Origin: Anaerolineae bacterium | GTDB taxonomy: Bacteria; Chloroflexota; Anaerolineae; JACRMK01 | Reading direction: 5' to 3' | Assembly: GCA_038198935.1 (NCBI GenBank) | Contig: JBBPZQ010000033.1 | Coordinates: 1,484 to 65,483, forward strand | Length of the DNA stretch: 64,000 bases | In this document: piece after piece, positions 6,098 to 62,500 of the stretch | How the letters are laid out: each line of letters begins with the position of its first letter | Numbering within the stretch: the first letter of the stretch is position 1 | The notes under the pieces: model-generated | The model's database searches: none | Seen by the model: the letters and a program-made list of their open reading frames with translations, nothing else | What the model was told of the DNA's origin: nothing | Program-made: the position numbers and the translations under genes

Positions 6098-6145
6098 GAG
6101 TCCTGAGTGCTGAGTCCTGAGAAGTCCCACTCAGGACTCAGCACT
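6098..6145. repeat. palindromic tandem-octamer element (GAGTCCTGAG family) at the argB/argD junction
   Basis: gagtcctgagtgctgagtcctgagaagtcccactcaggactcagcact: tandem units plus their inverted copies. The left and right arms are reverse complements. Confidence 0.6.
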
Positions 6146-6884
6146 GGATGACAGTTCCCGTTCCGTTCCGCAGTCCATCTAAATCGCAAATCACTACTGA
6201 CTTCACGCCGGCGCTGATGGCTTCGACGGCTGACTTCACTTTCGGAATCATGCCGCCGCTGATCTGGCCCGATGCGATGTGCTCGTCAATCTCGGCGGGC
6301 GTGAGCTGAGATACGATGGCGCCATTGAGTTGCACGCCGGGCACGTTGGTCACAAAGATCAGCGCGTCGGCGTTCATCGCCTTGGCGACCGCGAGCGCAA
6401 CGTGATCGGCGTTGATGTTGTAGGCGTGCCCGTCACTGCCCACGCCGATCGGCGCAATGACGGGCACGATGTGCTCTTTCATGAAAAGTTTGAGCGCGTC
6501 CGCGTTGACGTGCGTGATGCTGCCGACGAACAACAAGTCGCCTTGCTGAATGCGCAATGGCTCACAGCGCATCAGGTTCAGGTCTGCGCCGCTCAGTCCG
6601 ATCGCTTGCGCGCCGGCATTGTTCAGCGTGCGCACCAAGCGCTTGTTGATCGTCCCGCCCAGCACCATCTCGACGATTTGCAGCGACGCTTCGTCGGTCA
6701 CGCGCAAGCCTTCAACGAAGCGCGGCGCGATGCCGAGTCTGGTTTGCAGCGCGGCGATCTCTTTGCCGCCGCCATGCACGATGATCGGCGGCGACGACTG
6801 TGTCGCAATGATCTGAGCGAATTGCTGTAGGAACTCTGGCGAGTCAATCTCGTTGCCGCCGAGCTTTATGACATTCATGGCCAC
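6138..6884 (-). CDS. argB: acetylglutamate kinase
   Basis: 248 aa; amino-acid kinase family (VIKLGG...HGGG, NINADHVALAVA, GGMIPKV). Confidence 0.92.
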   Translation of the reverse strand: MAMNVIKLGGNEIDSPEFLQQFAQIIATQSSPPIIVHGGGKEIAALQTRLGIAPRFVEGLRVTDEASLQIVEMVLGGTINKRLVRTLNNAGAQAIGLSGADLNLMRCEPLRIQQGDLLFVGSITHVNADALKLFMKEHIVPVIAPIGVGSDGHAYNINADHVALAVAKAMNADALIFVTNVPGVQLNGAIVSQLTPAEIDEHIASGQISGGMIPKVKSAVEAISAGVKSVVICDLDGLRNGTGTVIQC

Positions 6885-6895
6885 GCTATCGGTTC

Positions 6896-6952
6896 GAGGA
6901 TTTCAGATGCAAGGGACAACCTGAAATCTGATATTTGCAATCTGAATTCATA
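6896..6952. repeat. hairpin element of the AATCTGAAATCTG family filling the argC-argB intergenic space
   Basis: atttcagatgcaagggacaacctgaaatctgatatttgcaatctgaattc. Shares tgcaatctgaa / tttcagat units with the elements at 23947-24003 and 25576-25636. Confidence 0.55.
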
Positions 6953-7955
6953 GTAGCCCCGCAGTTTCCTCCAACCCGCACATCACATTCATATTCTGCA
7001 CCGCTTGGCCACTCGCGCCTTTGATAAGATTGTCGAGCGCACTGACGATAATCGCAGTTCCGTTGACGGCGGTGAGCGAGATGACGCATTGATTGTTGCC
7101 GATCACGTAGCGCATGTTCGCCAGTTTGCCCGGCGGCAGCACCTTGACGAACGGCTCAGCTTCGTAGGTCGTGCGATACAAACCGATGAGTGCGTTCGTG
7201 TCGAGATGCTCGGTCGGCTGCACGTAGATCGTCGCGAGCATGCCTTGATTGATTGGCACCAGATGCGGCGCAAACACAATCTTCGTTGGCTTGCCGGCCG
7301 CGCGTGACAACTCTTGTTCGATCTCCGGAACGTGGCGATGCGCGTGCCCAATGTTGTAGGGCGACAAGTTCTCGTGTGCCTCGACGAAATGATGCATCAG
7401 GGCCGGCTTGCGACCTGCGCCCGATACGCCGGACTTCGCGTCAATAATGATCGGCGCGTCGCCAAGCAGCCCGGCTTTGGCGAGCGGATACACGCCAAGG
7501 ATCGAGCACGTCGGATAGCAGCCCGGATTGCAAATGAGCCGCGCATTCTGGATGTGCGCGCGATTGAGCTCGACCAAGCCGTATACCGCTTCGGCGAGCA
7601 ACTGCGGCGCGAGATGCTCGTGCGCGTACCACTGCTTGTAGTCGTCAGGCGACTTTAGGCGAAAGTCCGCGCTCAGATCAATCACGCGCACGCCCGCGTC
7701 GAGCAACGTCTTCGCTTGCACCATCGCCGCTGTGTGCGGCAGACACAAGAATGCGATATCTATGTCGGTGATCGGTGCCGCATCCATCGCGACCAATTCC
7801 AACTCGTCCGTCGTCGGATACACATCGGCGAGCGTCTGGCCGCTCGAACTTTCGCTCGTGCCGAACGCAACCTCGACGTGCGGATGTCGCCGCAGGATTT
7901 TTAACAACTCGATGCCCGTATAGCCCGACGCTCCGAAGATGCCGACTCTGATCAT
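6948..7955 (-). CDS. argC: N-acetyl-gamma-glutamyl-phosphate reductase
   Basis: N-terminus MIRVGIFGASGYTGIELLKIL (Rossmann fold); catalytic Cys region (NPGCYPT). ATG at 7955. The ORF-track upstream extension is unsupported. Confidence 0.9.
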   Translation of the reverse strand: MIRVGIFGASGYTGIELLKILRRHPHVEVAFGTSESSSGQTLADVYPTTDELELVAMDAAPITDIDIAFLCLPHTAAMVQAKTLLDAGVRVIDLSADFRLKSPDDYKQWYAHEHLAPQLLAEAVYGLVELNRAHIQNARLICNPGCYPTCSILGVYPLAKAGLLGDAPIIIDAKSGVSGAGRKPALMHHFVEAHENLSPYNIGHAHRHVPEIEQELSRAAGKPTKIVFAPHLVPINQGMLATIYVQPTEHLDTNALIGLYRTTYEAEPFVKVLPPGKLANMRYVIGNNQCVISLTAVNGTAIIVSALDNLIKGASGQAVQNMNVMCGLEETAGLL

Positions 7956-7977
7956 GGTTCGCTCCGCGAGGGAGGTT

Positions 7978-8090
7978 AGGGACTTGAGACCGGAGGTTGG
8001 CATACTTCAGTCTCCGGTCTCCCATCACCCATCTCCAGATAACAAAAATCCCAGACTTGAGTCTGGGATGTGTTCGCATACGACGGACGC
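7978..8090. repeat. two hairpins (GGGACTTGAG family) in the arg operon leader / divergent promoter region
   Basis: gagaccggagg...tctccggtctc (7986-8021) and atcccagacttgagtctgggat (8048-8069). Units resemble the deoA insertions. Confidence 0.5.
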
Positions 8091-8262
8091 GCCTAACAAG
8101 CACATCCAGACACAAGGTCTGGCAAGTTGCTAGGTCGTCGGCTCAGTGATTCGATATTCATGGTCGTGTATTCCATCGAAACTGGCATCATTATAGCAAT
8201 GCGCAGTTTCGCTGTCAATCTTATGTTATAATCGGCTGAGGCATTTTAAGGTTGAGGAGCCG

Positions 8263-12710: not shown

Positions 12711-13470
12711 TCTGGTCGCGCGCGACCTCAAAGTCCGCTACAAAAATTCGCTGCTCGGCATCATCTGGTCCATGCTCAACCCGCTGGGCATGATGCTCGT
12801 GTTCACCGTCGTGTTCACGATCCTGATTCCGAATAACAGCATCGAACGCTTTCCAATTTTCCTGATGTGTGGGCTGCTGCCGTGGAACTGGTTCTCAGGC
12901 TCGGTTGTCGGCTCGATCTACAGCGTCGTCGGCAACGCACCACTGGTGAAGAAAGTATTTTTCCCGCGCGAGGTGCTGCCCATCTCGATGGTGCTGTCCA
13001 ACCTCGTGCACTTTCTGTTGGCGTTGATCGTTCTATTTGTGCTCATGTTCGTTTCGCAAACGCCGCCCACGCGCTGGCTGGTGTTGCTCCCTATCCTTGT
13101 CGTTATTCAACTGTTGTTCACGCTCGGGCTGGCGTTTTTCCTCTCGGCGATCAACGTGTATTATCGCGACACGGCGCAGATCATGGAAGTACTCATGTTG
13201 GCATGGTTCTTCCTAACGCCGATCTTTTACTCCACTGACCTCATTCCGCAGAGCAAAGAAATCTTCGGCGTGGTGGTGCCCGTACAGCGGCTTGCCTATA
13301 TCGTCAATCCAATGGCGTCGCTGATTGCGTCGTACCGCGTCATTCTCTATGACGGCGCGCCGCCTGCGCTGGACTTCTTCCTGCGCACCGCGCTCACGTC
13401 GCTCATCGTACTCGCGCTCGGCTACTGGTTCTTCCATCGCCTAAGCCGCGACTTCGGCGAAGTGCTCTAA
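12640..13470 (+). CDS. ABC-2 type polysaccharide/O-antigen export permease (Wzm/TagG-like); no cognate ATPase adjacent
   Basis: Signature YRYRDLVRNLVARDLKVRYKNSLLGIIWSMLNPL and six predicted TM segments. The frame opens at 12565 but overlaps the GT4 gene. A TTG at about 12640 is the probable start, though the start codon is uncertain. Confidence 0.75.
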   Translation: MLTSTRAAYQHIAQLYRYRDLVRNLVARDLKVRYKNSLLGIIWSMLNPLGMMLVFTVVFTILIPNNSIERFPIFLMCGLLPWNWFSGSVVGSIYSVVGNAPLVKKVFFPREVLPISMVLSNLVHFLLALIVLFVLMFVSQTPPTRWLVLLPILVVIQLLFTLGLAFFLSAINVYYRDTAQIMEVLMLAWFFLTPIFYSTDLIPQSKEIFGVVVPVQRLAYIVNPMASLIASYRVILYDGAPPALDFFLRTALTSLIVLALGYWFFHRLSRDFGEVL

Positions 13471-13547
13471 TTCGCAATTCGTACTACGCAATTCGTAAGT
13501 GGACATCACGCATTACGGATTGCACATCCCGCATTACGGAATTCTGC
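13471..13547. repeat. tandem/inverted repeat element (CGCAATTCGTA / CGCATTACGGA family)
   Basis: ttcgcaattcgtactacgcaattcgtaagtgg...cgcattacggattgcacatcccgcattacggaattc: two direct copies of each arm. Related to the element at 37606-37658. Confidence 0.55.
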
Positions 13548-15560: not shown

Positions 15561-15660
15561 CGCGACGCACGTCGAATAGTCTGCATCAGAATGGGACGCA
15601 AGATGCAAGAAGCAGGATCCGTGCAATCCTGAATCTTGCGTCTTGCAGCCTGCATTGCAC

Positions 15661-16535: not shown

Positions 16536-17711
16536 TCACCAATCAACATCCAGCACGCGCTCCAATCGCGTCAAGCCCTCAATCAGCTTCGGCGTTTCCA
16601 CTAATGCCGAGAGCATCAAGAAGCAGCCGCGCTCTTCGTCGTAAAAGTAACCGGGATGTGCGAACAGTCCCGCCTCAAGCATATCGGCTAACAGCAAATC
16701 TTCGGCGTGGCAGTCCACCACTTCCGGAAACAGATACGTCCCGCCAAAAGGCGGCGCGACGCGCACCCAATTGATATTGTGCAAGTGGGCGAGCGCGACG
16801 AGCAAGTTGGATTGAATGCGTGCTCGCATCTGCTCCACGAATGGCCTGCCGCGCTCGAACAAGGTCGGCAGCATGAACTGAGTCAGCGAGTTTGCGCCGA
16901 GCAGTGTATCGCTCAGAAGTTCGAGCGGCTCGATATAATCGTCGGCACTGGGCCCGCTGATGGCGATCCAGCCGAGCTTTAGATCGGGCAGTGCAAACAT
17001 CTTCGAGATGCCGTTGAGATGGAACACCGTCGCGTCGGGATGCAAAGTTCCGATGGGCGGCACGCTGCGCGCGGCGAAAGGAAATTCGCAGAACACTTCG
17101 TCGGCAATGATGGGGAGGTTGGAAGTTGGAAGTCGGAGTGTTTCGGTAATGACGTGTCCCGTCGGATTGTGCGGTGAGATGAGCATGACGGCTCGTGTGC
17201 ATTCATCCATCTGCTCAGTCAATCGTGCACCATCCACTGCCCATTGCAGCGTATGTAGTGAAAACTCGGATTGCGCACCTACAATGTCCAACCAATAGTT
17301 TCGCAATTCGATGTGATTCATCGCCGCGAGGTGACTAAACAACGGGTAACTCGGAATCGGCGCGAGCACGTTGTCGCCCGGCTGTGTGAGCAAGGCGAAC
17401 AGCAGCGAGTACGCCTCATTCGTGCTCGCCGTGATGAAAATATGCTCTGGCGAAATGTCGAGCGGCGGCTCGCGGCGCGCGTAGTATCGCGCGATGGCTT
17501 CTCGGGCGCGCAGGCTGCCCTTCGGGTGCGGCTCGTAGCGCCGCGTGCGCCAATACTCTTCGGAGGCGTCGCGCAGGATGTCGGTCGGGAAGATGAAACC
17601 ATGATGCGTGGGGTTGCTGCTGCTCAGATCAATATAATCGTCGCGCTGCGCAGCTAGTCGGCGCAACTGTTCGAGTGGCGACGGCGTGAGGTCGAGCGCA
17701 GCGAGTGACAT
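16536..17711 (-). CDS. class I/II PLP-dependent aminotransferase
   Basis: SPHNPTGHV and NGISKMF (PLP lysine) motifs. Start chosen at MSLAALDL. The longer ORF-track start is unsupported. Confidence 0.8.
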   Translation of the reverse strand: MSLAALDLTPSPLEQLRRLAAQRDDYIDLSSSNPTHHGFIFPTDILRDASEEYWRTRRYEPHPKGSLRAREAIARYYARREPPLDISPEHIFITASTNEAYSLLFALLTQPGDNVLAPIPSYPLFSHLAAMNHIELRNYWLDIVGAQSEFSLHTLQWAVDGARLTEQMDECTRAVMLISPHNPTGHVITETLRLPTSNLPIIADEVFCEFPFAARSVPPIGTLHPDATVFHLNGISKMFALPDLKLGWIAISGPSADDYIEPLELLSDTLLGANSLTQFMLPTLFERGRPFVEQMRARIQSNLLVALAHLHNINWVRVAPPFGGTYLFPEVVDCHAEDLLLADMLEAGLFAHPGYFYDEERGCFLMLSALVETPKLIEGLTRLERVLDVDW

Positions 17712-17911: not shown

Positions 17912-19684
17912 ATGAAAATTCTGCTCCGCCTGCTCGCCAACCTCAACCGTTATCGTCTTCAGATGTTCATCACCTACGTCTGTCTGTTCGGCATCATCGC
18001 GTTGAATCTGTACGTGCCGCAGTTGATACGACGGGTAATTGACGAAGGCGTGACGCACGGCGATCGTCAGTTCCTCGTCAACGCGGGCGTGCTGATCATG
18101 GGCATCGCATTGCTGCGCGGCGCGTTCGGTTTTGGGCGCATGTACCTGACGGAGTGGCTGGCGCAGCGCATTGGCTACGACTTTCGCAATCAACTGTACG
18201 ACAAGTATCAACGTCTGTCGTTCGCGTTCCACGACCACGCGCACACGGGCGATCTGATGTCGCGCGCGACCAGCGATGTGGACGGCGTGCAGCGCTTCAT
18301 CGGCAACGGCTTGCTCGACCTCGCCAACATCGCCGTCACGCTCGTCGGCAGCATCGCCATCATGCTCACGTCCGATGTGCGGCTCACCTTGCTCACGCTC
18401 GCGCCGATTCCCGTGCTTGTGGTTGTAACCGTGCGCTTCGGATTGAATCAGCGCGTCTTGTCCAAGCGCGTGCAAGAGCAGATGGGCAAACTCAGCACGA
18501 CACTGCAAGAGAATTTGACGGGCGTGCGCGTCGTTAAAGCATTTGCGCGCGAGGCATACGAGGTCAACAAGTTCGAGACGGAGAACCGAGATTATCTCGG
18601 CAAACGTCTCGCCGTCGTGCAGTCGTGGGCGAGCACGTTCCCGTTCATGAACTTCATCATTGCGGTCTGCACCGCAGTCCTGTTGTGGTTCGGCGGGCAA
18701 GACGTGATTCGTGGCACGCTCAGCATCGGCACACTCGTGGCATTCAACGCCTATATCCTGATGCTTTCACTGCCCGTTCAGCGCCTCGGCTTTCTGGTCA
18801 ATATGATGTCGAATGCCGTCGCGTCGGGCGAGCGTTTGTTCGAGATCCTCGACCAACCATCGAAGGTGCGTGAGAGCGCAAGCGCGACGATCCTCGGCGC
18901 TGTTGATGGCTTCGTGAAATTCGAGCATGTAAATTTTTCGTTTGGCGACAATGAGGTACTTCACGATGTGTCGTTTGAGGCGCGACCAAGCGAGGCCGTC
19001 GCGCTGATGGGTCCGACCGGCGCGGGCAAGAGCAGCATCGTGAATCTGATCCCGCGCTTCTACGACGTGACGAGCGGGCGCATCACAGTGGACGGTCACG
19101 ACATCCGTAACGTGACGCTCGCCTCGCTGCGTCGTCAGATCGGCATGGTGCTGCAAGAGTCGTTTCTGTTCTCGGCGACCATTCGGCAGAACATCGCATA
19201 CGGCAATCGCAACTCTGACCTCGACGACGTGATCGCGGCGGCGAAGGCAGCGCGCGCGCATGACTTCATCATGCAACTGCCTGATGGCTATGAGACGCGC
19301 ATCGGCGAGCGCGGCATCACACTGAGCGGTGGTCAGCGGCAGCGCGTCGCCATCGCGCGTGCGCTCTTGCTTAACCCGCGCATCTTGATACTGGACGATT
19401 CGCTCTCGGCGGTGGACACCGAGACCGAGTATCTCATTCAGCAAGCGTTGGCGACCTTGATGAACGGGCGCACGACGTTCGTGATTGCGCAGCGGCTCAT
19501 CACGCTAAAAAGTGCCGATCAGATCATCGTGCTCGATCACGGGCGCATCGTGCAGCGCGGCACGCACGATGATTTGGTACAGCAGCCCGGCCTATACAAG
19601 CGCATCTACGAATTGCAGTTGAAGGATCAAGAGGAAGTGGCGAGCAGCGAGTGGCGAGTGGCGAGTGTTCAGCGGATTGGATAA
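17912..19684 (+). CDS. ABC exporter, fused permease/ATPase (MsbA/type I exporter family), subunit 1
   Basis: Six-TM domain plus NBD with Walker A GPTGAGKSS, signature LSGGQRQR and Walker B ILILDD. The C-terminal tail is encoded by a tandem GAGTGGC repeat. Confidence 0.9.
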   Translation: MKILLRLLANLNRYRLQMFITYVCLFGIIALNLYVPQLIRRVIDEGVTHGDRQFLVNAGVLIMGIALLRGAFGFGRMYLTEWLAQRIGYDFRNQLYDKYQRLSFAFHDHAHTGDLMSRATSDVDGVQRFIGNGLLDLANIAVTLVGSIAIMLTSDVRLTLLTLAPIPVLVVVTVRFGLNQRVLSKRVQEQMGKLSTTLQENLTGVRVVKAFAREAYEVNKFETENRDYLGKRLAVVQSWASTFPFMNFIIAVCTAVLLWFGGQDVIRGTLSIGTLVAFNAYILMLSLPVQRLGFLVNMMSNAVASGERLFEILDQPSKVRESASATILGAVDGFVKFEHVNFSFGDNEVLHDVSFEARPSEAVALMGPTGAGKSSIVNLIPRFYDVTSGRITVDGHDIRNVTLASLRRQIGMVLQESFLFSATIRQNIAYGNRNSDLDDVIAAAKAARAHDFIMQLPDGYETRIGERGITLSGGQRQRVAIARALLLNPRILILDDSLSAVDTETEYLIQQALATLMNGRTTFVIAQRLITLKSADQIIVLDHGRIVQRGTHDDLVQQPGLYKRIYELQLKDQEEVASSEWRVASVQRIG

Positions 19685-20250: not shown

Positions 20251-20451
20251 CGCAGTTCTCCTTTGCAGAAACTGGACGGCGCTGCCCGCACCGGGGCGAA
20301 TGCGGCGCGTGACCATCTCAATAAGAAACCGTCGCTTCTGGCGCGGCGTGAGGTTGCCGTCAGGTGCGATCTTGGCTATTGCGGGGGGAATGCGTTCGTT
20401 GTCCACAACATTTATTATACAGAGCGGCAGCAAATCTAACCGAGATTCACC

Positions 20452-23473: not shown

Positions 23474-23563
23474 TGGTCTGAGCCGTTAGTCACTGGTCGT
23501 TGGTCGCTTGTCTTCCTCGTGATGGGTTCAGCGATTTCAATCGCAAGAAATAGAAAGGAATGT

Positions 23564-23947
23564 ATGCTGAACGTCCAGAAACGCATTTTCAAAGATAGCA
23601 AGTCGCCGGACAAGTTTGAGACGCTGCTCGGTCCGAGCGCGAACTTTGACGGCCAACTGAAGTGCTCCGGCGGCGTGCGCGTGGAAGGCGACTTCAAGGG
23701 CGGAATCGAGACCGATGGCAATATCATCGTCGGCAAAGCCGCAAACGTTAGCGCCGATTTGCGCGGCCACAACATGTTAATCGCGGGCAAAGTGAACGGC
23801 AACATCTTCGCGCATGGTCAGCTCGCCATACTCTCGACGGGGCAAGTACTCGGCGATGTCGAGGTCGGCTCGATCTTGATCGAAGAAGGTGGCGTGTTCA
23901 GCGGACGCAGCACGGTGCACACGAATGGACACGGGGCTAACGCTTGA
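23564..23947 (+). CDS. bactofilin family cytoskeletal protein
   Basis: DUF583 beta-helical repeats (GGVRVEGDFKGGIETDGNIIVGKAANVSADLRGHNMLIAGKVNGNIFA...). ATG at 23564 with AAAGGA RBS. Confidence 0.85.
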   Translation: MLNVQKRIFKDSKSPDKFETLLGPSANFDGQLKCSGGVRVEGDFKGGIETDGNIIVGKAANVSADLRGHNMLIAGKVNGNIFAHGQLAILSTGQVLGDVEVGSILIEEGGVFSGRSTVHTNGHGANA

Positions 23948-24003
23948 TTTCAGATTGCAGATTGAGCGAGCAAATCTGCAATCTGAAATCTGAAATCTAA
24001 AAT
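23947..24003. repeat. hairpin element, AATCTGAAATCTG family
   Basis: tttcagattgcagattg agcgagc aaatctgcaatctgaaatctgaaatc: tandem heptamers with inverted copies. Confidence 0.6.
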
Positions 24004-24007
24004 ACCT

Positions 24008-24700: not shown

Positions 24701-24816
24701 TGTGCAATGCGTCAGTGGCAGCGCGCATATAAGGCATTACGAATCACTTGTTACGCATCACGCTATGTTATAATAGCCGCAGACCACATTCCTTTTTCTA
24801 GAAAACGAGGTGTCCC

Positions 24817-25569: not shown

Positions 25570-25575
25570 GACCCA

Positions 25576-25636
25576 ATTCAGATTTTAGATTTTGGCGCTG
25601 CCATTGCAGTTTGCATGCCCTAAAATCTGCAATTAG
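25576..25636. repeat. hairpin element, AATCTGAAATCTG family (degenerate)
   Basis: ttcagattttagatttt...ctaaaatctgcaatt, between yebC and ruvC. Confidence 0.45.
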
Positions 25637-25638
25637 CA

Positions 25639-27346: not shown

Positions 27347-27354
27347 TTTATAAT
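27326..27354 (+). promoter_or_regulatory. sigma70-like promoter for tRNA-Gly
   Basis: TTGACC (27326-27331), 17-nt spacer, TATAAT (27349-27354). The tRNA 5' end lies 11 nt downstream. Confidence 0.5.
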
Positions 27355-27364
27355 AGCACTCGCT

Positions 27365-27435
27365 GCGGGTATGGTTCAGTGGTAGAACGCGAGCTTCCCA
27401 AGCCTGAAACGCGGGTTCGATTCCCGCTACCCGCT
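27365..27435 (+). tRNA. tRNA-Gly (anticodon CCC)
   Basis: Cloverleaf by hand: acceptor GCGGGTA/TACCCGC, D arm GTTC-AGTGGTA-GAAC, anticodon loop TTCCCAA, T arm GCGGG-TTCGATT-CCCGC. One A-C mismatch in the anticodon stem. CCA is not encoded. Confidence 0.85.
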
Positions 27436-27443
27436 TCACAAAT

Positions 27444-37600: not shown

Positions 37601-37605
37601 GAGAA

Positions 37606-37658
37606 CTCCGAAGCGTGATGCGTAATCCGTAATTCGTGCTGCGTGTTGCGAATCAATT
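37606..37658. repeat. inverted-repeat element (CGTAATCCGTAATTCG family)
   Basis: tgatgcgtaatccgtaattcg...cgaatcaattacgcgtca. Related to the element at 13471-13547. Confidence 0.5.
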
Positions 37659-37663
37659 ACGCG

Positions 37664-38641
37664 TCATGCATGGATGAACTGCTCAAGCGCTTCACTCGCG
37701 CGCTCCGCTGCATGTTCGTCGGCGTCAAGCCACAAGATTTGCGGGTCGTCAAGCGCGAACCACGCGTACTGACGGCGTACGAAGCGGCGGGTTTCCTTTT
37801 TCGTTTCGCTCACGACGTCTTCGAGTGACCGTGCGCCGTGCAGATGTTGGATCAACTGCCGATAACCGAAGCCGGACAGCGCGGGCAGATTTTCGTCGTA
37901 GCCGCGCGCGAGCAGGTCACGCACCTCGTCGAGTAAACCGTCCCGCATCATCTGATCAACGCGTGCATCTATGCGGCGATACAATTTTTCGCGCGGCAGC
38001 GTCAGTCCGAGTTGTAGAATGCGGTAAGGCGGCGGCGCTTTACGCTGACGCGACGAGATCGGCTGGCCCGTCGTATGATAGACTTCGAGGTAGCGGATCA
38101 CGCGGCGGATGTTGCGCGCATCCACCTTCTGGGCGGCAATCGGGTCCACCTGCTGCAATTGCCGATAGAGAGAATCGCTGCCGTATGTCTGCACTTCGCG
38201 CTCGAGTTGGCCGCGCAATAGAAAGTCCGGAGCGACTTCGGGAATCGTCCAACCTTCCAGCACCGTCTTGACGTACAAGCCCGTGCCGCCGACGAGCAGC
38301 GGCAATTTACCGCGCGCGTGAATGTCGTGAATCTTCTGGTTGGCAAGCTGTTTATATTGCGCGAGCGTGAGCGTTTCGTCGGGATCAACGAGATCAATCA
38401 GGTGATGCGGCACACGCGCGCGGTCGTCGCGCGTCGGCTTCGCCGTGCCAATGTCCATGCAGCGATAAATCTGCCGCGAGTCCGCGCCGATGATTTCACC
38501 AGCAAACTTTTTGGCGAGTGCAATCGAAAGCGCAGTCTTGCCGACGGCAGTGGGCCCCACGACGGCGGCAAGTTTGATTCGGCAGGAATCCTCCCCTGCG
38601 GAGAGGGAGATGGCAGGGTGGGGGTCAACGTTGGACTGCAT
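37664..38641 (-). CDS. miaA: tRNA dimethylallyltransferase
   Basis: P-loop VVGPTAVGKTALSIALA...DSRQIYRCMDIGTAKP. The first about 20 codons (MQSNVDPHPAISLSAGEDS) are encoded by a repeat element, so the true start may be internal. Confidence 0.85.
   Translation of the reverse strand: MQSNVDPHPAISLSAGEDSCRIKLAAVVGPTAVGKTALSIALAKKFAGEIIGADSRQIYRCMDIGTAKPTRDDRARVPHHLIDLVDPDETLTLAQYKQLANQKIHDIHARGKLPLLVGGTGLYVKTVLEGWTIPEVAPDFLLRGQLEREVQTYGSDSLYRQLQQVDPIAAQKVDARNIRRVIRYLEVYHTTGQPISSRQRKAPPPYRILQLGLTLPREKLYRRIDARVDQMMRDGLLDEVRDLLARGYDENLPALSGFGYRQLIQHLHGARSLEDVVSETKKETRRFVRRQYAWFALDDPQILWLDADEHAAERASEALEQFIHA
38590..38625. repeat. short GC-rich element, CCCTCTCC-GGGAGAGGG...CAGGGTG family
   Basis: ctcccctgcggagagggagatggcagggtggggg. 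Resembles 62433-62470 (ccctctcccagcgggagagggcagggtgaggg). Confidence 0.45.
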
Positions 38642-39684: not shown

Positions 39685-39702
39685 GTGTCAAAAAGAAAAT
39701 TA

Positions 39703-39760
39703 GGGGAGATTAGAACAAACTAGCGGAAGCGCGCTTCCCTAATCTCCCCTAATGTCCCCT
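39703..39760 (-). terminator. rplS terminator hairpin built from tandem TAATCTCCCC units
   Basis: ggggagattag...ctaatctcccc with inner palindrome ggaagcgcgcttcc. A T-rich run follows on the minus strand. Confidence 0.65.
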
Positions 39761-39788
39761 AATTTCATTGCGTTGGTGGTACGGAGGG

Positions 39789-41044: not shown

Positions 41045-41235
41045 GACCTGATTTTACAAGTGTCAGGTCTCAAGTGCCAAGTGTTCAATATCAACTTTAG
41101 CATCGCACATCTACATGTCGGTTGAAACCTGATACGTGGCTGATGGCAATTCGCATAGGCTCTTACTTATGTCCCTTTGTCCCCATCATTCATGTCGCTT
41201 ATAATCGAAACGATATTGAAGTTGAGGAGTGAGTA

Positions 41236-51667: not shown

Positions 51668-51952
51668 CGGCGCATCATCGGAGTTGAGTTGAGTTGAGCG
51701 CTAGATCGCTGCGCGTAGGCAATCACTTATCCGCACGCGAAAAATATTTGTTCTCCAACACAAGCCAACCAACGGAGTATTCATACGAGGAAGTCAACGC
51801 ACGCAAAAACAAAAAATCGCCTACGAGGAAAAAGCGTGCAAGCAGAGGTCTCTGCAAATGGTGGCTGTCACCAATTTGCAATCTCGAACCACTCGCAACG
51901 AGCGATGGTCGAGACCGGACAGGTGATACAGACCTGTCCGGTCTCAGCACTC

Positions 51953-55881: not shown

Positions 55882-57393
55882 ATGAACGGCCAACAAAACC
55901 CACAGTCCCTCACAGAACAAATCATTCAGATCAATCCAAACGACGAGATTGCGACGATCCGCGACAAGATTCAGTGGGCGAGTGCGCCGCGCGTCGTGCT
56001 GTACGTAGCGCACCGCAACAAGGCGCTGCGCGACAAAATGAATCTGAAACTTGTGCAGCGCACGGCAATTGACAACGCGATACAGATCGCGCTCGTCGCG
56101 CGTCATCCCGAAACGGTGCGGCTCGCCCAAGAGATTGGCTTGCCCGTGTTCTGGACGGCGCGTTCGCTCTTGCCGTGGCGCAAGTGGAATAGCCCCGCGC
56201 CCGTCTTTGTGCCCGACGACGACGGCGACGTGCTGACCGTCGTGACGCCGAGCGAATCACGCATGCACAAAGACTATCGCCTCGCCAGCGCGATTGGGGG
56301 CGGTATCTTCATCTTGGTGATCGGCACGCTCGTGTTGATGCTGCTGCCGACCGCCAAGATCAGCATCGCACCGATGACCGACGAACTGGCAGTAGATCAC
56401 ATCCAGATCAGCGCAAGCTCAAATGTAAAATCGGTGAATATAACCATCGGACAGATTCCTGCGCGGCTCGACACTGTAACGCTCGACGGTAGCGAGCAGT
56501 TGGTACCGAGTGCGAAAAAAGATGTGCCCGACGCGAAAGCGAGCGGCACAGTTCTGTTCACCAACCGCACCAATCAAGCGATACATATTTCAAAAGGGAC
56601 AGTCGTCGCCACGTCGTCGGGCGCACCAATCCGATTCCAAACGACGCAAGATGCGGATGCTGCGCCTGCCGCGCGCGTCGAGGTACCGATTCAGGCGCTC
56701 GAAGGCGGGCCCAACGGCAACGTCGCGCGTTTCACCATCAACTCCATCGAAGGCCCGCTGGCTGTAGCATTAATTGCGCTCAACCAAAATCCAACCGGCG
56801 GCGGCACGGTCAGGCGCGCGAGCGTGGTCTCGGAAGAAGATAAGAAGCGGCTCGAAGATACGTTAGCCAATCGCTTCCGCCAAGAAGCGATCACGAAACT
56901 GCAAGGCAAGCAGTTGGAAAATGAATTTCTGGCCGCCGAGACAATCAGCGTCACGCTGGATACGAAGACGTTCGACAAATTCGTGGACGAACCGGCCGAC
57001 TTGTTGACGTTGACCGCGCACGCAACGGCACAAGGCTTGATCGTCAACGGCGCGAACGCGAACATCATCGCGCTCAAACGCTTGGAGAGCAAACTGCGCA
57101 CGGGCTTCGAGTTGCTGCCCAACAGCATCACGTTCGTGCCGGGCGGCATACTGGCTGCCGACCCGACGAGCATCAAGTTCGAGATGAACGCGAAGGGCAA
57201 AGCCGCCGAGGCGATTGACCGCTTTGCAATTGCGAACAGTGTGCGCGGCATGACGACGAAGGAAGCGACGGCTTGGTTGCAGCAGCACTACTCGTTGCGC
57301 CGCGAGCCCGACTTCGACATCAAGCCCGACTGGATCGGCAGCGGTCGTCTGCCGTTCTTCAACTTCCGCATCAACGTGGACGTGACGCAGTAG
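55882..57393 (+). CDS. hypothetical membrane protein (single TM, large extracytoplasmic domain)
   Basis: 503 aa. Cytoplasmic N-terminal about 130 aa, TM IGGGIFILVIGTLVLMLL, no recognised domain. Confidence 0.55.
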   Translation: MNGQQNPQSLTEQIIQINPNDEIATIRDKIQWASAPRVVLYVAHRNKALRDKMNLKLVQRTAIDNAIQIALVARHPETVRLAQEIGLPVFWTARSLLPWRKWNSPAPVFVPDDDGDVLTVVTPSESRMHKDYRLASAIGGGIFILVIGTLVLMLLPTAKISIAPMTDELAVDHIQISASSNVKSVNITIGQIPARLDTVTLDGSEQLVPSAKKDVPDAKASGTVLFTNRTNQAIHISKGTVVATSSGAPIRFQTTQDADAAPAARVEVPIQALEGGPNGNVARFTINSIEGPLAVALIALNQNPTGGGTVRRASVVSEEDKKRLEDTLANRFRQEAITKLQGKQLENEFLAAETISVTLDTKTFDKFVDEPADLLTLTAHATAQGLIVNGANANIIALKRLESKLRTGFELLPNSITFVPGGILAADPTSIKFEMNAKGKAAEAIDRFAIANSVRGMTTKEATAWLQQHYSLRREPDFDIKPDWIGSGRLPFFNFRINVDVTQ

Positions 57394-57404
57394 CGGCAGC
57401 CCGT

Positions 57405-58835
57405 GTGCTTGCCTTTACGCCACGCACGGTATTCGGTTTGCAATCCACCCATTTCTTTCGTGCGCTGCTCAGGTCACGGCGCAAGCGCAGACGCGTGCTG
57501 CCGTTGCTGGCGCTGGCGTCGCTGCTGCAAGTTGGCGCACTGCAAGCCGTCGCTCTCACTGCTGTTGTCTTCTTCGTGGTGAGCAATCAGAATGACTCGT
57601 GCGCCACGACTCCTTTCATTATTCCGGCCGATGCGCCCGGCCACGCGACGTACCTCGACCTCAGCGTACCGTTTGAGACACTCGCCAGTGCGTGCGCGTC
57701 GCCTCAGCCGATTTCGGCTCCGCCGACCGTTGAGACTCAGCCCGCCAATAGTGCGCTCGTCAACGAGTTGCTCGCGCCGCTCGTCAACGAAGCGCAGCAG
57801 CGGCGCGAGGCGCGTGTCGAGAGCGAGCCGCAGGTCGCGAAGCGCGTTGATCCTGCGCTGAACGATGGGCGCATCAACTTCCTGTTTTTCGGCTACGGCG
57901 ACACATACGAGCCGCCCGAGCCTGTTCACTTCAAAGGATCCATCAACCTGTTCTCGCTCGACCTGCGCACACTGAACATCTCCAGCATCACGCTCAACCA
58001 CGATATTCGCGCGCCTGAAGTCGAGCATTTTCAGCAGACGAACATCCCGACGAAAATCCACATGGCGTATCCCGTCGGCGGATTTGATTTGATGCGCGAC
58101 ACGGTCGAGGATGCCACCGGCTTGTCGGTGGACTTTCAACTCACGATGGAAGATGGCGTGATCGCGCGCGCAGTGGACGACGTGTTCGGCGCACTTGACG
58201 TTGATTCGCCTTTTGATCTCGACGCGCGCCCCATCTATTTGGATGGCGTCGAGTATCCTGAATTCCATTTCGCAGCGGGCACGCAAAAGCTCGACGGCTT
58301 GCACGCGCTGCAATACATCAAAGCCGTGATGAAGGGCGAATACGATGCGAGCAAAGAATTAACCGTACGCAAACAAATTGTCGTCAAAGCGCTGGTGCAA
58401 GCCACGCAGCGCGAAGTGCTCAATCCGCTCTTTTGGACAAGAGTGCTGCGCTTCATGCACAATGAAGTGGCTCGCCATTCGATTGGCTACGACTTTGACG
58501 TGCCCGCGCTGGTATTTGCGGCGGCGCAGAAGTTTGCCGCGTTGGGCACTTTCCTGCCAATTTCTGAACAGGCGCGCGGCAACATGATCCTGCCGCGCAT
58601 GGGGCAGAGTCTTTACGTCGTGGATTATCTGAGCGGCGATGGCGGCGTCGAGTGGGTAACCGGCAGCCTTAACCCGCTCATGCAGCACGACGTCGCGAGC
58701 GGAGTGTATGCGGCTGACCAATCGTTCTCGGTGCCGAAGGGCGACGCCGACCCATACGCCGACGATCTGGTCGCAAATTATTGGACGTCGGTGCGTGAGT
58801 TGGTGAAGCAGCGATTGCTGACGAACGATGAATAA
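57405..58835 (+). CDS. LytR-CpsA-Psr (LCP) family cell-envelope phosphotransferase
   Basis: LCP core (RINFLFFGYGDTY...SINLFSLD...LNHDIRAPE, downstream R/D-rich catalytic segments). N-terminal TM. The frame opens at 57273 overlapping the previous gene, so a GTG at about 57405 was chosen and the start is uncertain. Confidence 0.7.
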   Translation: MLAFTPRTVFGLQSTHFFRALLRSRRKRRRVLPLLALASLLQVGALQAVALTAVVFFVVSNQNDSCATTPFIIPADAPGHATYLDLSVPFETLASACASPQPISAPPTVETQPANSALVNELLAPLVNEAQQRREARVESEPQVAKRVDPALNDGRINFLFFGYGDTYEPPEPVHFKGSINLFSLDLRTLNISSITLNHDIRAPEVEHFQQTNIPTKIHMAYPVGGFDLMRDTVEDATGLSVDFQLTMEDGVIARAVDDVFGALDVDSPFDLDARPIYLDGVEYPEFHFAAGTQKLDGLHALQYIKAVMKGEYDASKELTVRKQIVVKALVQATQREVLNPLFWTRVLRFMHNEVARHSIGYDFDVPALVFAAAQKFAALGTFLPISEQARGNMILPRMGQSLYVVDYLSGDGGVEWVTGSLNPLMQHDVASGVYAADQSFSVPKGDADPYADDLVANYWTSVRELVKQRLLTNDE

Positions 58836-58914
58836 GGAGTGACGACAGACGTTGGACGGTTGACGGCACACTACGACCTGCCGTCCGCCGTTCGCCGTCT
58901 GGCGTCGCGCAACT

Positions 58915-59376: not shown

Positions 59377-60565
59377 ACAGAACACTTTTCGGGAACGACA
59401 CGAAGCGAAACATCGCCCGCGTTGGTCGCCGCTGCGCGCACTGATGTTCCTCGCCGTGCTCGCCGTGTGCGGCGGCGTCGGCTACCTGATTTTCTCCCCT
59501 TTACTGCAAACCGCCAGACCCGCATCCAGCGCGCCGAGCGCCTCGACCAGCAATCAGCCTGCCGGGCGCGGCTCTTCGATTGATCAAGTGTTGCTCAACA
59601 TCTATCTCAGTCTCAAGCAGAGCGAAATTGACGCGCGCTCGAGCGGCACGGGCGACGTGCCGTTCGCGGTGCAAAATGGCGACACGCCCGCGACGATAGG
59701 CACTCGGCTGAAAAGCATGGGCATGTTGAGCGACGCAGAATTATTCCGGCTGCTGGCGCGCGCACGCGGCGTGGAGAACAACTTGCAGGCGGGTGAATAC
59801 ACATTGAAGCGCGGCATGACGATGGACGAAATCCTCATCGCGCTGCAACACGGACGCGACCGTCCGAATGTGCTGACCATCGTCGAGGGGCGGCGCGTCG
59901 AAGAGATCGCGGGCTTGCTCGACAAGCAAGGCATCGCCAAAGCCAGCGACTTCATCAACGCCACGAAGATGAGCGCCACGTACAACATTCCTGAACTAAA
60001 CGGCCGCCCGAACGGCTCGACGCTGGAAGGCTTCTTGTTCCCCGACACCTACGACCTGCCGAAGGACGCGACGGCGCAGCAACTCGTGCAGTTGATGCTT
60101 CGCAACTTCGACAAGAAAGCCGGCGGCGATCAGTGGAGCAAACCACCGCAAGGACTGACGGCGTATCAGACGCTCATCATCGCGTCCATCGTCGAGCGTG
60201 AGGCGCAGGTGCCGAGCGAGCGGCCCATCATTGCCAGCGTGTATGAGAATCGCATCAAGCAGGGGATGCGTCTCGAAGCCGACCCGACCGTGCAGTACGG
60301 CATGGGCTTGCAGCCGAATGGCTCGTGGTGGAAGACGCCCGTCATGCTCGAAGAGTATCAGCGTGTCAACTCGCCATACAACACGTACACCAACGACGGC
60401 TTGCCGCCCACGCCGATTTGCAGTCCCGGTGCGGATGCGATCAAAGCTGCGTTCCAACCCGCGAAGACGGAATTCCTCTTCTTCGTCGGCAAGGGCGACG
60501 GCACCCACGCCTTCGCCAAGACGTTCGAGGAACATCAGGCGAACGTTGCGAAGTATCAGAAGTAG
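59369..60565 (+). CDS. mltG: endolytic murein transglycosylase MltG (YceG family)
   Basis: N-terminal TM. The YceG domain ends ...YNTYTNDGLPPTPICSPG... with catalytic Glu region LIIASIVEREAQ. Confidence 0.88.
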   Translation: MARQNTFRERHEAKHRPRWSPLRALMFLAVLAVCGGVGYLIFSPLLQTARPASSAPSASTSNQPAGRGSSIDQVLLNIYLSLKQSEIDARSSGTGDVPFAVQNGDTPATIGTRLKSMGMLSDAELFRLLARARGVENNLQAGEYTLKRGMTMDEILIALQHGRDRPNVLTIVEGRRVEEIAGLLDKQGIAKASDFINATKMSATYNIPELNGRPNGSTLEGFLFPDTYDLPKDATAQQLVQLMLRNFDKKAGGDQWSKPPQGLTAYQTLIIASIVEREAQVPSERPIIASVYENRIKQGMRLEADPTVQYGMGLQPNGSWWKTPVMLEEYQRVNSPYNTYTNDGLPPTPICSPGADAIKAAFQPAKTEFLFFVGKGDGTHAFAKTFEEHQANVAKYQK

Positions 60566-60640
60566 GGCGGACGACGGACGACGGACGACCGACGACGGAT
60601 GGTCAATCGTCAATCCTCGGTCGTCCGTCGTTTGCGTGCT
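60566..60640. repeat. tandem GACGACG heptamer hairpin after mltG (terminator-like)
   Basis: gacgacggacgacggacgaccgacgacgg...ggtcgtccgtcgt followed by ttgcgtg. Confidence 0.55.
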
Positions 60641-61166
60641 TGTTGGATTGTGGCTGCTCGCCGCCTGCGCTCCCATCCAACTCACTCGCCCCGTATTCAA
60701 GCTCGGCTTACTCGCGCCGTTCGAGGGTAAAGGGCGCGCGAGCGGCTACGAAGCACTCTATGCGGCCAAACTCGCGCTTCAAGAGCGGAACGCCACAGGT
60801 GGCATCGCGGGTTGGTCGGCCGAGTTGGTTGCCCTAGACGATGGCGACGACTTCGCGCAGACGATCCAGCAGGCGCGCGTGCTTGCGGCCGATCCCGACG
60901 TGATGCGGATGCTCGTCGTGATCCCTTCAAATGAGATGCAACGCGCGAACACGCGACTGGTGTCGCTCGGATTGGCGTTTGATATGGTTGCACCGCAAGC
61001 GACTGATGGCAATACTGCGAACAGCGCCGCATTCATCGCTGCCTATCACTCCATCTCTGGTGGCATCACACCCGGCGCGCTCGCCGCGCAAACATATACA
61101 ATGACGCAGTCCGCGCTCGCGCAAATCGAGCAGCGCATCCGCGCGCAAGGTCATCCGTCTCGCTAA
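60636..61166 (+). CDS. truncated periplasmic-binding-protein type 1-like lipoprotein fragment (LivJ-like N-terminal domain only)
   Basis: Lipobox LWLLAAC. KLGLLAPFEGKGRASGYEALYAAKLALQERNATGGIAGW..VALDDGDD resembles a branched-chain amino-acid-binding protein N-lobe but stops after about 176 aa. Start codon (GTG 60636) uncertain. The ORF-track upstream extension overlaps mltG and is rejected. Confidence 0.4.
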   Translation: MLVGLWLLAACAPIQLTRPVFKLGLLAPFEGKGRASGYEALYAAKLALQERNATGGIAGWSAELVALDDGDDFAQTIQQARVLAADPDVMRMLVVIPSNEMQRANTRLVSLGLAFDMVAPQATDGNTANSAAFIAAYHSISGGITPGALAAQTYTMTQSALAQIEQRIRAQGHPSR

Positions 61167-61200
61167 CCACATCCATACTTCATCGTTAATACTTTACCAG

Positions 61201-62427
61201 ATGCGAATTCTCGAACTCACGTGGGAGTATCCCCCGCACGTCGTCGGCGGCGTCGGCACACACATCGCGGCGCTTGCGCCGATGCTTGCGCACTTAGGCA
61301 ATAACGTGACGCTCGTCACGCCGCTGATGGGTGGCACAGCGCTCGAAAGCGCCGATGGCTTGACCGTCCAGCGTGTCGAGACTGCGCCGTGGCTCGACGA
61401 CCTGCTGAGCGATGTGCAGCAGACCAACGCGCGCATGACCTCATTCGTCGCCCAACTGATTGAAGGCGGCGCTGCGTTCGACGTCATTCACGCGCACGAT
61501 TGGCTCGTCTGCTTCGCCGCGATTGCGCTCAAGCAGCAATACAAACTGCCGCTGCTCGCCACTATCCACGCCACCGAGCGCGGCCGCTGGCGCGGCTATC
61601 TCGGCGGCGATCCTTCGCGGCAGATCGCCGACGCCGAGTGGCAGATGACGTTCGAGGCGTGGCGCGTCATCACGCCCAGTCGCTCGATGGCAAACGAGAT
61701 TCACAACTATTTTAAGTTGCCCGCCAACAAGATTGACGTGATCCCCAACGGCATTGACACGCGGACATTCGACGCGCTCGACGGCGACCCTTCGACGGCA
61801 CGGTATCAACGCCGCTCAGGGCAAACTCTGAGCGACTTCCGCGCACAATATGCGCCGCCCGATGCACCGCTCGTCTTCAGTGTCGGCCGCCTCACGTACG
61901 AAAAGGGCGCGCACGTACTGATCGAAGCCGTGCCGCGCGTGCTGGCACAGCATCCGACGACGACGTTCGTCATCGCGGGCACAGGTGCAATGGGCGATGG
62001 CTTGAAGGAGCGCGTGAACGAATTGAATGTGAGCGAGAGTGTGCGCTTCGTCGGCTTCATTTCGGACGAGGAGCGCAATAAACTCTACAAGGTGGCGACC
62101 TGTGCCGTGTTCCCGTCGCTGTACGAGCCGTTCGGCATCGTCGCGCTGGAGGCAATGGCGGCGACGTGTCCGCTGGTCGTCGCCAGCACCGGTGGACTGG
62201 CGGAGGTCGTGCAGCATCACGTCACGGGCGTGACGGTCTATCCTAATTCGGCCGATTCGCTCGCCGACGGCATTTTGCACGTGCTTGACCATCCCAACTG
62301 GGCGCGCGAGCGCGCGCAAGTCGCCTACCAAAGGGTCGTGCAGAAATTCAACTGGCGCGAAATCGCGGAGCGCACGCTGCGAGTGATGGAGCGGATTGTG
62401 GAGGAGCGGAAGAGCGCGGATTGGTAA
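61201..62427 (+). CDS. glycosyltransferase family 4 (retaining GT-B)
   Basis: MRILELTWEYPPHVVGGVGTH... N-terminus and C-terminal E-x7-E region (FPSLYEPFGIVALEAMA). Confidence 0.85.
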   Translation: MRILELTWEYPPHVVGGVGTHIAALAPMLAHLGNNVTLVTPLMGGTALESADGLTVQRVETAPWLDDLLSDVQQTNARMTSFVAQLIEGGAAFDVIHAHDWLVCFAAIALKQQYKLPLLATIHATERGRWRGYLGGDPSRQIADAEWQMTFEAWRVITPSRSMANEIHNYFKLPANKIDVIPNGIDTRTFDALDGDPSTARYQRRSGQTLSDFRAQYAPPDAPLVFSVGRLTYEKGAHVLIEAVPRVLAQHPTTTFVIAGTGAMGDGLKERVNELNVSESVRFVGFISDEERNKLYKVATCAVFPSLYEPFGIVALEAMAATCPLVVASTGGLAEVVQHHVTGVTVYPNSADSLADGILHVLDHPNWARERAQVAYQRVVQKFNWREIAERTLRVMERIVEERKSADW

Positions 62428-62432
62428 GAGCA

Positions 62433-62500
62433 CCCTCTCCCAGCGGGAGAGGGCAGGGTGAGGGAGAGCTCTCCCTCATCCCCAACCCTTCTCCCGCAAG
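62433..62500. repeat. two adjacent perfect hairpins between convergent genes (bidirectional terminator; CCCTCTCC family)
   Basis: ccctctccc-agc-gggagaggg and gagggagag-ctctccctc. Similar to 38590-38625. Confidence 0.6.

Follow-up and report, generated by a model that had tools for sequence, protein, structure and literature searches.

Heptamer-built hairpins between and within the genes of an Anaerolineae genome

The window analysed here is a stretch of 64,000 nucleotides from an Anaerolineae bacterium (Chloroflexota; GenBank assembly GCA_038198935.1, contig JBBPZQ010000033.1, positions 1,484 to 65,483), and our subject is a class of short repeat elements, mostly hairpins built from tandem heptanucleotides, that lie between its genes and, in two cases, inside one of them. 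The window has a G+C content of 59% and about 90% coding density, with tightly packed housekeeping genes and 9.9% non-coding DNA; its nearest relatives are Chloroflexota metagenome-assembled genomes (MAGs). The gene map consists of long open reading frames (ORFs) with high GC3, with Pfam as a check, and its last gene encodes a pyrimidine-nucleoside phosphorylase (PyNP; identified by Pfam, best solved relative 1BRW). An earlier note on this DNA, made from the sequence alone, had described the elements as hairpins of tandem 7-9 nt units that occupy most gene junctions and serve as, or replace, transcription terminators. The elements are numbered E1 to E16 in Table 1.

The repeats have a specific period. 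With one detector and dinucleotide-preserving shuffles as the null, the window holds 20 arrays of period 7 against 3.2±1.4 in the shuffles, while periods 8, 9 and 10 give one array each, which is background, and period 5 shows no excess over shuffles; TRF reports 13 period-7 rows. A unit length of 7-9 nt therefore stands for 7 but not for 8 and 9, and the sole exception is one element of period 10. Non-coding DNA, 9.9% of the window, holds 13 of the 20 arrays (binomial P = 3.5e-9). Elements are present at about 16 of some 62 gene junctions, so that "most gene junctions" was an overstatement. The units are diverse, with at least 11 distinct canonical heptamers coexisting in the window, and the families that had been distinguished do share some units, but only marginally above chance (five element pairs with units differing by at most one mismatch, 2.3 expected, P = 0.07). 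No full-length consensus was found among the window elements, which differ in loops, unit order and unit number, and in Rfam 15 at the gathering score no element was matched, only two tRNAs. A pattern search for the CCCTCTCC family found two copies in the window; across the other loci it gave no matches because the spacer varies in length. What is constant across the class is the 7-nt period and, usually, a mirrored second arm; there is no defining conserved sequence.

Compared with shuffles, ten elements fold strongly as RNA (z -3.1 to -7.5), and the eight elements tested as single-stranded DNA gave z values of -2.6 to -7.4. Three to five tandem units, a short loop and the inverse were confirmed at 6098-6145, 23947-24003 and 60566-60640, and the same layout is present in the two intragenic copies (63034-63112 and 63668-63747). 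The first of these reads GAGTCCT GAGTGCT GAGTCCT GAG - loop - CTC AGGACTC AGCACT (E1), and the second (E6, 23946-24003) reads GATTTCA GATTGCA GATTG - loop - AAATCTG CAATCTG AAATCTG AAATCTA. The element beside rplS (39697-39765) is indeed a hairpin, made of 10-nt units; that at 62431-62502 is a simple GC-rich double palindrome, in line with the earlier description of an inverted repeat without tandem units; and a direct-only AGTGGCG array (19636-19668) does encode the last residues of an ABC exporter. If a hairpin is called weak when its z lies above -3 on at least one strand, six elements fold weakly, at 6893-6950, 13469-13547, 25573-25637, 37603-37663, 38588-38627 and 41045-41095; the first five had been listed as hairpins, and for them the period of 7 or the family resemblance holds up but the fold is weak. 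Two strong heptamer hairpins (15592-15648 and 58838-58908) and two direct arrays (17112-17139, in-frame in an aminotransferase gene, and 23474-23518) had escaped the earlier list.

The internal anatomy of the hairpins carries information on how they arose. Arm-to-arm complementarity is 0.80-1.00 and, for most hairpins, equals or exceeds the identity of units within an arm, and in E1 and E6 a variant unit in one arm has its mirror image in the other. In E14 one arm is perfectly homogeneous (1.00) and the other alternates two units, with a complementarity of 0.81, so that both slippage and arm-to-arm copying are visible in one element. Two processes are indicated: single arms change in unit number, and sequence is copied from one arm to the other. 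The folding energies of sense and antisense strands show no consistent difference, which suggests an origin at the DNA level. Selection at the RNA level was judged by the same comparison and found no consistent bias to rest on. Units as diverse as these speak against an enzyme with a fixed recognition sequence.

The elements sit at stop codons, as had been noticed before. Nine of the ten intercistronic elements begin at -8 to +6 nt relative to the stop codon, and the stop codon lies within the first unit in E1 (the argB TGA, inside an arm), E2 (the argC stop), E4 and E6. On the other side the next start codon follows at -1 to 21 nt, and in six elements the gap is 1-6 nt, with no Shine-Dalgarno sequence between. 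Of the 16 extragenic elements, 11 separate closely spaced genes that run in the same direction within recognisable operons (argC-argB-argD, yebC-ruvC, rplS-rnhB, ruvX-yceG-next gene and bactofilin-LysM), and convergent junctions are not favoured (two of about nine, those of E5 and E15). The elements also lengthen ORFs: Pfam domains place the argD start near 6075, that of argC near 7955 and that of miaA near 38590, so that the longer argD, argC and miaA ORFs run through elements, as had been claimed for the argD and miaA N-termini.

Comparison with relatives indicates that the elements are specific to certain lineages. Five syntenic loci with 64-70% PyNP identity (L026/L027, L028, L090, L091) have no heptamer seed site in 73 kb, against 0.34 sites per kb in the window and 0.5-3.5 per kb in its closest array-rich relatives. 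In L026, L028 and L090, yceG overlaps or abuts the next gene and E12 is missing; ruvX follows its upstream gene by 10-21 nt in syntenic relatives; and the gap between the glycosyltransferase-family GT4 gene and PyNP is 83 nt in the window and 5-21 nt in L026, L028 and L029 (5-16 nt in L026 and L028). Because these junctions overlap, abut or are short, E11, E12 and E15 are lineage-specific additions. A still closer relative (L092-L094), with 88% YebC identity and full synteny with window positions 22.4-35.9 kb, has no heptamer site in 28 kb. In this relative (L093) bactofilin and LysM overlap at ATGA, without E6, and the yebC TGA is directly followed by the ruvC ATG (TGAATG), a junction that in the window is filled by the 69-nt E7; the M23 peptidase and bactofilin genes are 10 nt apart in this relative and 90 nt apart in the window. 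Measured against these empty sites, both E6 and E7 occupy the precise boundary of stop and start; E7 shows no clear target-site duplication, and E6 only a TGA...TGA that is ambiguous. The array-rich relative GCA_020199845.1 (L096; 85% YebC and 78% PyNP identity) has a diverged AATCTG-type homologue of E6 at its bactofilin-LysM junction and only a 10-nt spacer, without E7, between yebC and ruvC. The elements are thus insertion-polymorphic between relatives, a point that the earlier note had raised as a question, with empty junctions in L026, L028, L090 and L093 and with E6 but not E7 shared with L096. On these comparisons together, elements come and go at single junctions, and some persist through changes of unit arrangement. 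The closest relatives are represented by very short contigs (1.3-2.3 kb), many of them ending beside these genes, which is the pattern expected if the repeats break assemblies.

Two elements, E13 and E14, are read in-frame within the PyNP gene. The window PyNP has 484 residues, against 433-436 in most homologues, which are those without inserts, and the surplus consists of two segments, at residues ~74-100 and ~285-311, that are the two hairpins. The reading frame is intact through both, and since 7 and 3 have no common factor, translation turns each arm into a 7-residue repeat (KSKVQSPKSKV...). The inserts map between residues 75/79 and 261/262 of 1BRW. In an AlphaFold model of high overall confidence (pLDDT 86, pTM 0.88) only residues 81-96 and 291-310 have pLDDT below 50 and no secondary structure, and the inserts lie in loops that are predicted to be disordered. 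Extra residues are present at the same two sites in all clade members with at least 64% identity. At site 2, L029 has four CGTCCAA units and a partial inverse, L030 a CCCTC.../GGGAGAG/GGGGTGAGG palindrome of the E15 family (-42.7 kcal/mol), and L031 three copies of GGGGAAATTA, the unit family of E9; at site 1, L030 has four CAATTAC units between residues conserved across the clade. Each of the three intergenic repeat types of the window is therefore found in some sister lineage as an in-frame part of the same enzyme loop. The older inserts of L026, L028, L090 and L091 were examined as decayed palindromes and show no significant structure, with a weak signal at site 1 of L026. A PyNP scan of genome contigs returned relatives of at most 53% identity, together with two Acidobacteriota loci that match through the element-encoded peptide, and a scan of metagenome contigs returned only distant relatives of at most 56%, which are uninformative on turnover.

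Further repeats were seen around PyNP in two of these relatives. Directly upstream of the gene in L030 (positions 1-200) there are two tandem units of ~98 nt, each with a GGAGAGGGGCCGGGGGTGAGG-type palindrome of the E15 family, and a GAACAGT heptamer hairpin stands right after the PyNP stop codon. In L031 (1092-1224) the convergent junction of PyNP and GT4 holds a long hairpin of ~10-nt units (CACGAAAGAC-type), which are not heptamers.

Heptamer arrays of this kind are also found in more distant genomes. The Chloroflexota MAG HGW-Chloroflexi-1 (L004) has 1.0 heptamer sites per kb, with units that include GGGTATT, GGGGTCA, GCAATCT and GACGAAT, and many of its units form hairpins that adjoin gene ends. 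Two Acidobacteriota loci (L024, Pyrinomonadaceae, and L025) have 0.7 sites per kb, and in L025 a chorismate-binding enzyme gene contains a GGACTT/GGACAT hairpin and an AAATCTG palindrome, both in-frame. Viral contigs with GGACTTN x3 (47 stretches) are array-rich overall, at 0.5 per kb. It was the GGACTT motif that led to L024, L025 and the viral loci, so their sharing of it is not independent evidence. Across all array-rich loci there are 616 sites with 223 distinct units in 472 kb, and in the remaining loci 33 sites in 537 kb; the specificity for period 7 also holds in related and unrelated array-rich loci. Apart from the GGACTT motif, the window units almost never recur elsewhere. A heptamer vocabulary common to different genomes was considered and rejected as unproven, as window units gave one recurrence, the motif excluded, against 2.2 for letter-permuted controls, a null that is inflated because these controls have the same base composition as the abundant units of the GGACTT family. 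Separately, L004 has 15 period-8 seed sites besides its 22 period-7 sites; period-8 sites are present neither in the window nor in the other array-rich loci. An IMG/VR viral contig (L062) has dense arrays of TGATTAC, TGATAAC and TGATCAC, of which TGATAAC is a rotation of the TAACTGA unit discussed below.

Heptameric repeats are a known feature of bacterial genomes. A general excess of heptameric simple sequence repeats (SSRs) was described by Mrazek (2007), and the heptanucleotide STRR repeats of heterocystous cyanobacteria by Mazel et al. (1990), both as summarised in PMC4692102. In Xanthomonas and Nostoc an excess of such SSRs, inverted array pairs and high length variation between close relatives were reported, and polymerase slippage was proposed (PMC4692102). 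Function and origin are still open (PMC4692102, PMC4679880, bioRxiv 10.1101/2022.06.06.494920). The elements described here share with the long-SSR/STRR class head-to-tail 7-nt units, dispersed and mainly intergenic, with several unrelated units in one 64-kb window; as in STRRs, many unit sequences occur per genome, no function is known, and structured genes tolerate the hairpins that an array can form with its inverse. As Vioque reportedly described in 1997, STRR hairpins lengthen helix P12 of RNase P RNA. The elements are not STRR1-3 of Calothrix and Nostoc in the strict sense: the host is not a cyanobacterium but belongs to Chloroflexota (other carriers being Acidobacteriota and viral contigs), and the canonical units CCCCAGT, TTGGTCA and CAACAGT differ from those found here, apart from loose resemblances (TTGGTCG at 23490 and the GAACAGT of L030). 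In addition, the palindromic layout is the rule here and the exception in STRRs, and the elements lie exactly at stop/start boundaries, with some in-frame in an enzyme gene. The GGGAATC repeats of Xanthomonas and the GGGGA(C/T)T repeats of Nostoc likewise show a period-7 intergenic excess, some inverted pairs that can form stem-loops and strong variation in length and sequence between close relatives, but they are G-rich, quadruplex-forming and dominated by one unit in each genome, whereas the units here are diverse and mostly not capable of forming quadruplexes (PMC4692102). The TAACTGA repeats of Beggiatoaceae, cyanobacteria and Bacteroidetes are similar in being patchily distributed heptamer arrays by start codons, some ORF-internal and encoding 7-residue peptides, but have a single dominant unit in direct repeats (with one inverted case) and stand upstream of starts without filling stop-to-start gaps (PMC4679880). 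The literature searched contained no description of comparable elements from Chloroflexota or Acidobacteriota. They would thus appear to be a heptamer-repeat variant that has not been reported before, of a known but unexplained kind.

We read the elements as heptanucleotide palindromes of the STRR or long-SSR kind, short pieces of DNA that are not essential. With moderate confidence, we favour the explanation that they are remodelled by slippage, turn over quickly and are tolerated at gene boundaries. The lineage would be prone to slippage in a 7-nt register, so that a short array may start in unconstrained DNA and then grow or shrink by replication slippage. The inverted copy may be made, and kept matched, by strand-switching or hairpin-templated copying of the type known from quasipalindrome correction. 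Elements would then persist where a fold-out hairpin does little harm, for instance in the exact gap between a stop codon and the following start or, in-frame, in a surface loop of an enzyme, provided that the length is a multiple of 3 and no stop codon is introduced. In RNA they would form stable stem-loops without U-tracts, with modest effects at most on mRNA decay or translational coupling and none on termination.

Several observations weigh against this explanation. There is no demonstrated mechanism for a period of 7 rather than 5, 6, 8 or 9. Growth by single units within coding sequence passes through frameshifted intermediates, and the in-frame PyNP copies are easier to understand as single insertions or as steps of three units. 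E13 and E14 have common ends (…CGATGT / GGACATT…) and a common unit mix, and the in-frame hairpin of L025 is very similar and lies beside an AAATCTG palindrome, so that the two main families of the window are together there; these likenesses hint at copying or horizontal spread over purely local birth. The starts of the elements near stop codons are more regular than tolerance alone obviously predicts. The repeat census covers one 64-kb window of this genome, and the Acidobacteriota and viral loci retrieved through the GGACTT motif are an ascertained sample.

The main rival explanation, which we regard as possible though rather unlikely, is that the elements are non-autonomous mobile hairpins of MITE, REPIN or RPE type, copied in trans by an enzyme of the genome or of a phage that favours stop/start boundaries or existing hairpins. 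It would account for the precise insertions relative to relatives, for the shared termini and unit mix of the two PyNP copies, for the pair of in-frame repeats in the Acidobacteriota enzyme, for the 47 array-rich viral stretches, for three different repeat families at the same two PyNP sites in close relatives, for the patchy occurrence across phyla and for the difficulty of growing heptamers unit by unit within a coding frame. The copies, however, have no common full-length consensus, their unit sequences are extremely diverse, there is no clear target-site duplication at E6 or E7, a Pfam scan of the window ORFs revealed neither a transposase nor a RAYT, and the cross-phylum matches were ascertained by searching for that very motif. 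REP, BIME and REPIN elements are also short extragenic palindromes at gene ends and in operons, and their hairpin RNA can stabilise upstream mRNA, but each genome has a conserved consensus of 20-40 nt and a cognate RAYT (PMC3116915, PMC3733652); here the arms are internally periodic and no consensus is shared. RPEs and in-frame MITEs resemble the PyNP copies, which likewise lie in-frame in a conserved gene at structurally permissive positions, in that palindromic repeats are placed in housekeeping genes where the fold allows it, but RPEs form families of 100-150 bp with conserved sequence and peptide (PMC10969869), whereas the elements here are 50-80 bp long and heptamer-built, and the same two loops of one enzyme carry different repeat types in sister lineages. 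MITE-type full-length similarity, as from a parent insertion sequence, was not found between window elements. MITEs have terminal inverted repeats flanked by a target-site duplication, and in the present case the whole element is an inverted repeat.

It is unlikely that the elements are selected intra-operon RNA stem-loops, acting as barriers to 3'-5' exonucleases or as RNase processing sites that determine how stable each cistron is relative to the others, in the manner of REP and BIME, or as devices for translational coupling that hold the downstream start close to the upstream stop. Their stems are strong (-27 to -43 kcal/mol as RNA), the stop and the next start flank the stem base, with the short gaps to the start given above, and the genes concerned overlap, and are thus translationally coupled, in relatives. 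Against this, close relatives manage without them, G-U wobble pairs show no preference for the transcribed strand, there are copies within coding sequence, a second arm is missing from some arrays, and turnover is rapid among diverse units. A selected role in the mRNA or in coupling is possible but not required.

More doubtful again is the idea that the clear-cut division of genomes into array-rich and array-poor ones is due to a dedicated activity, open to horizontal transfer, by which DNA is written in a 7-nt register. It might reside in a variant component of the replisome or of repair, or in an enzyme that adds template repeats or targets hairpins. Behind it stand the close relatives without sites, the scattered Chloroflexota, Acidobacteriota, cyanobacteria and phages with 0.3-3.5 sites per kb, and a period that is constant where unit sequences are not. 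If it were true, the hairpins would be its footprints, and the repeated filling of the same enzyme loops would represent active targeting of existing hairpins and not selection alone.

The proposal that the elements serve as or replace terminators, whether Rho-independent or of the U-tract-less "I-shaped" kind, is improbable. The hairpins are stable and begin at or just after stop codons, E5 and E15 stand in convergent junctions, and the inner stem of E9 is weakly terminator-like in the terminator scan. But no T-tract follows the heptamer hairpins, whose tails, such as ATACCTGTG and TTGCGTGC, are not T-rich, and the terminator scan of the window lists none of them, although canonical terminators with a stem and T-run exist at 1584-1618(+), 27444-27461(+) after a tRNA, 44021-43993(-) and 47978-47950(-). 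Most of the elements lie within conserved operons, they are missing in relatives with the same gene order, and two copies are intragenic. Because the genes overlap or abut in relatives, a strong terminator at argC/argB or yebC/ruvC would break the operon. The elements do not look like transcription terminators, and such a role is not supported.

That they are assembly or amplification artefacts is scarcely credible: the source is a MAG contig and contigs of related array-rich genomes break near repeats, but the same architecture is seen in independent NCBI, JGI, ENA and Logan assemblies, the PyNP frame is preserved through both hairpins, and a diverged E6 homologue stands at the orthologous junction of another MAG.

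Although bacterial heptamer repeats have been known since 1990, neither the cause of the 7-nt period nor a function was ever established. The elements described here extend the phenomenon to Chloroflexota, Acidobacteriota and viral contigs. As array content is nearly all-or-none among close relatives, profiling for a causal gene or replisome trait becomes feasible, and the palindromes wedged between stop and start offer natural pairs of insertion and empty site for effects on transcription, mRNA decay and coupling. The PyNP loops could serve as a model of how selfish or slippage DNA creates disordered protein loops. On the practical side, the elements make ORF calls too long and seem to break up MAG assemblies.

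Table 1. Repeat elements and arrays of the window, in positional order
Feature	Position	Strand	Structure and units	Location	Folding (z)
E1	6095..6147	-	heptamer hairpin, TGAGTCC units, 16/16 bp stem	argB/argD	-5.6/-6.7
E2	6893..6950	-	AATCTG-type heptamers, weak hairpin	argC/argB	-1.6/-1.4
E3	7962..8038	-	degenerate heptamer hairpin (GGAC/GTCC, CTCC units)	argC leader, immediately 5' of argC ATG at 7955	-3.2/-3.3
E4	13469..13547	+	TTCGCAA/CGCATTA heptamers, weak hairpin	whole gap from ABC-2 permease stop to SIS-domain gene start	-2.8/-1.9
E5	15592..15648	-	heptamer hairpin, GACGCAA GATGCAA GAAGCAG + inverse	13 nt downstream of dienelactone-hydrolase gene	-6.1/-6.0
GGAAGTT array	17112..17139	-	direct heptamers	in-frame in aminotransferase gene	
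AGTGGCG array	19636..19672	+	direct heptamers, x4.6	encodes C-terminal tail of ABC exporter 1	
M23 peptidase/bactofilin spacer	23474..23563	+	degenerate direct heptamers TTAGTCA CTGGTCG TTGGTCG CTTGTCT	M23 peptidase/bactofilin	
E6	23944..24005	+	heptamer hairpin, 18/18 bp	bactofilin stop/LysM start	-7.5
E7	25573..25637	+	AATCTG-type, weak to moderate hairpin	yebC stop to ruvC ATG	-2.2/-3.9
E8	37603..37663	-	about six direct GCGTAAT-type heptamers, fold not significant	miaA/next gene	-1.0/-0.5
E16	38588..38627	-	partial copy, CCCTCC...GGAGAGGG..CAGGGTG palindrome family, weak	UPF0102 gene/miaA	
E9	39695..39767	-	10-nt-unit hairpin (CCCCTAATNT / ATTAGGGGAG)	rplS/rnhB	-6.5/-7.1
E10	41045..41095	none	small hairpin + direct CAAGTGT-type heptamers, weak	upstream of trmD	
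E11	58838..58908	+	heptamer hairpin, GACGNNN x4 / GCCGTCN x4, 27 pairs	between lineage-specific LytR-family gene and ruvX	-5.5/-3.7
E12	60564..60633	+	heptamer hairpin, CGGACGA x4.6 + inverse (60566-60631)	right after yceG TAG to 4 nt before next gene	-3.1/-5.7
E15	62431..62502	none	GC-rich double palindrome CCCTCTCCC-GGGAGAGGG-CAGGGTGAGGG..., non-heptameric	between convergent GT4 and PyNP genes	-5.2/-4.7
E13	63034..63112	-	heptamer hairpin	in-frame in PyNP, site 2, residues ~285-311	-5.1/-6.2
E14	63668..63747	-	heptamer hairpin, GGACTTT x5 / ATGTCCG-AAGTCCC	in-frame in PyNP, site 1, residues ~74-100	-6.6/-5.9

Some neighbouring features of the window are recorded here in their own right. The argC leader (7956-8218, minus strand) has a perfect TTGACA-17-TATAAT promoter-like site with an upstream TG (8218-8190) and two CCAGAC/GTCTGG hairpins, the second of which (8069-8048) is followed by a T-run, then by E3 and the argC ATG; it could be an attenuator-type leader for arginine biosynthesis. 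Between alaS and ruvX there is a Baseplate_J-like gene (phage baseplate family; 55882-57393, plus strand), conserved in L026/L027, L028 and L090, for which this housekeeping neighbourhood is odd. Between it and ruvX lies a LytR_cpsA_psr-family gene (~57400-58835, plus strand), with E11 directly after; this gene is missing in L026, L028 and L090, where the flanking genes are 10-21 nt apart or overlap slightly. An ORF with a weak match to AbiEii, a type IV toxin nucleotidyltransferase, lies on the opposite strand between two ABC exporter genes (19708-20658, minus strand). Compared with L092, the window has an extra ~1 kb (27347-28470) between the DUF4446 gene and the NTP-transferase/PGM gene, in which there are two small ORFs on the minus strand as well as a tRNA (27365-27435) and its canonical terminator. 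All close relatives (L093, L095, L096) share with the window an extended -10-like motif, TGTTATAATAGCC, upstream of yebC (24770-24790), which suggests a separate yebC promoter on the 3' side of the LysM gene. Finally, a perfect pentamer array, GAGTT x3.6, is found at 51681-51698, just upstream of the gene at 50855-51667.

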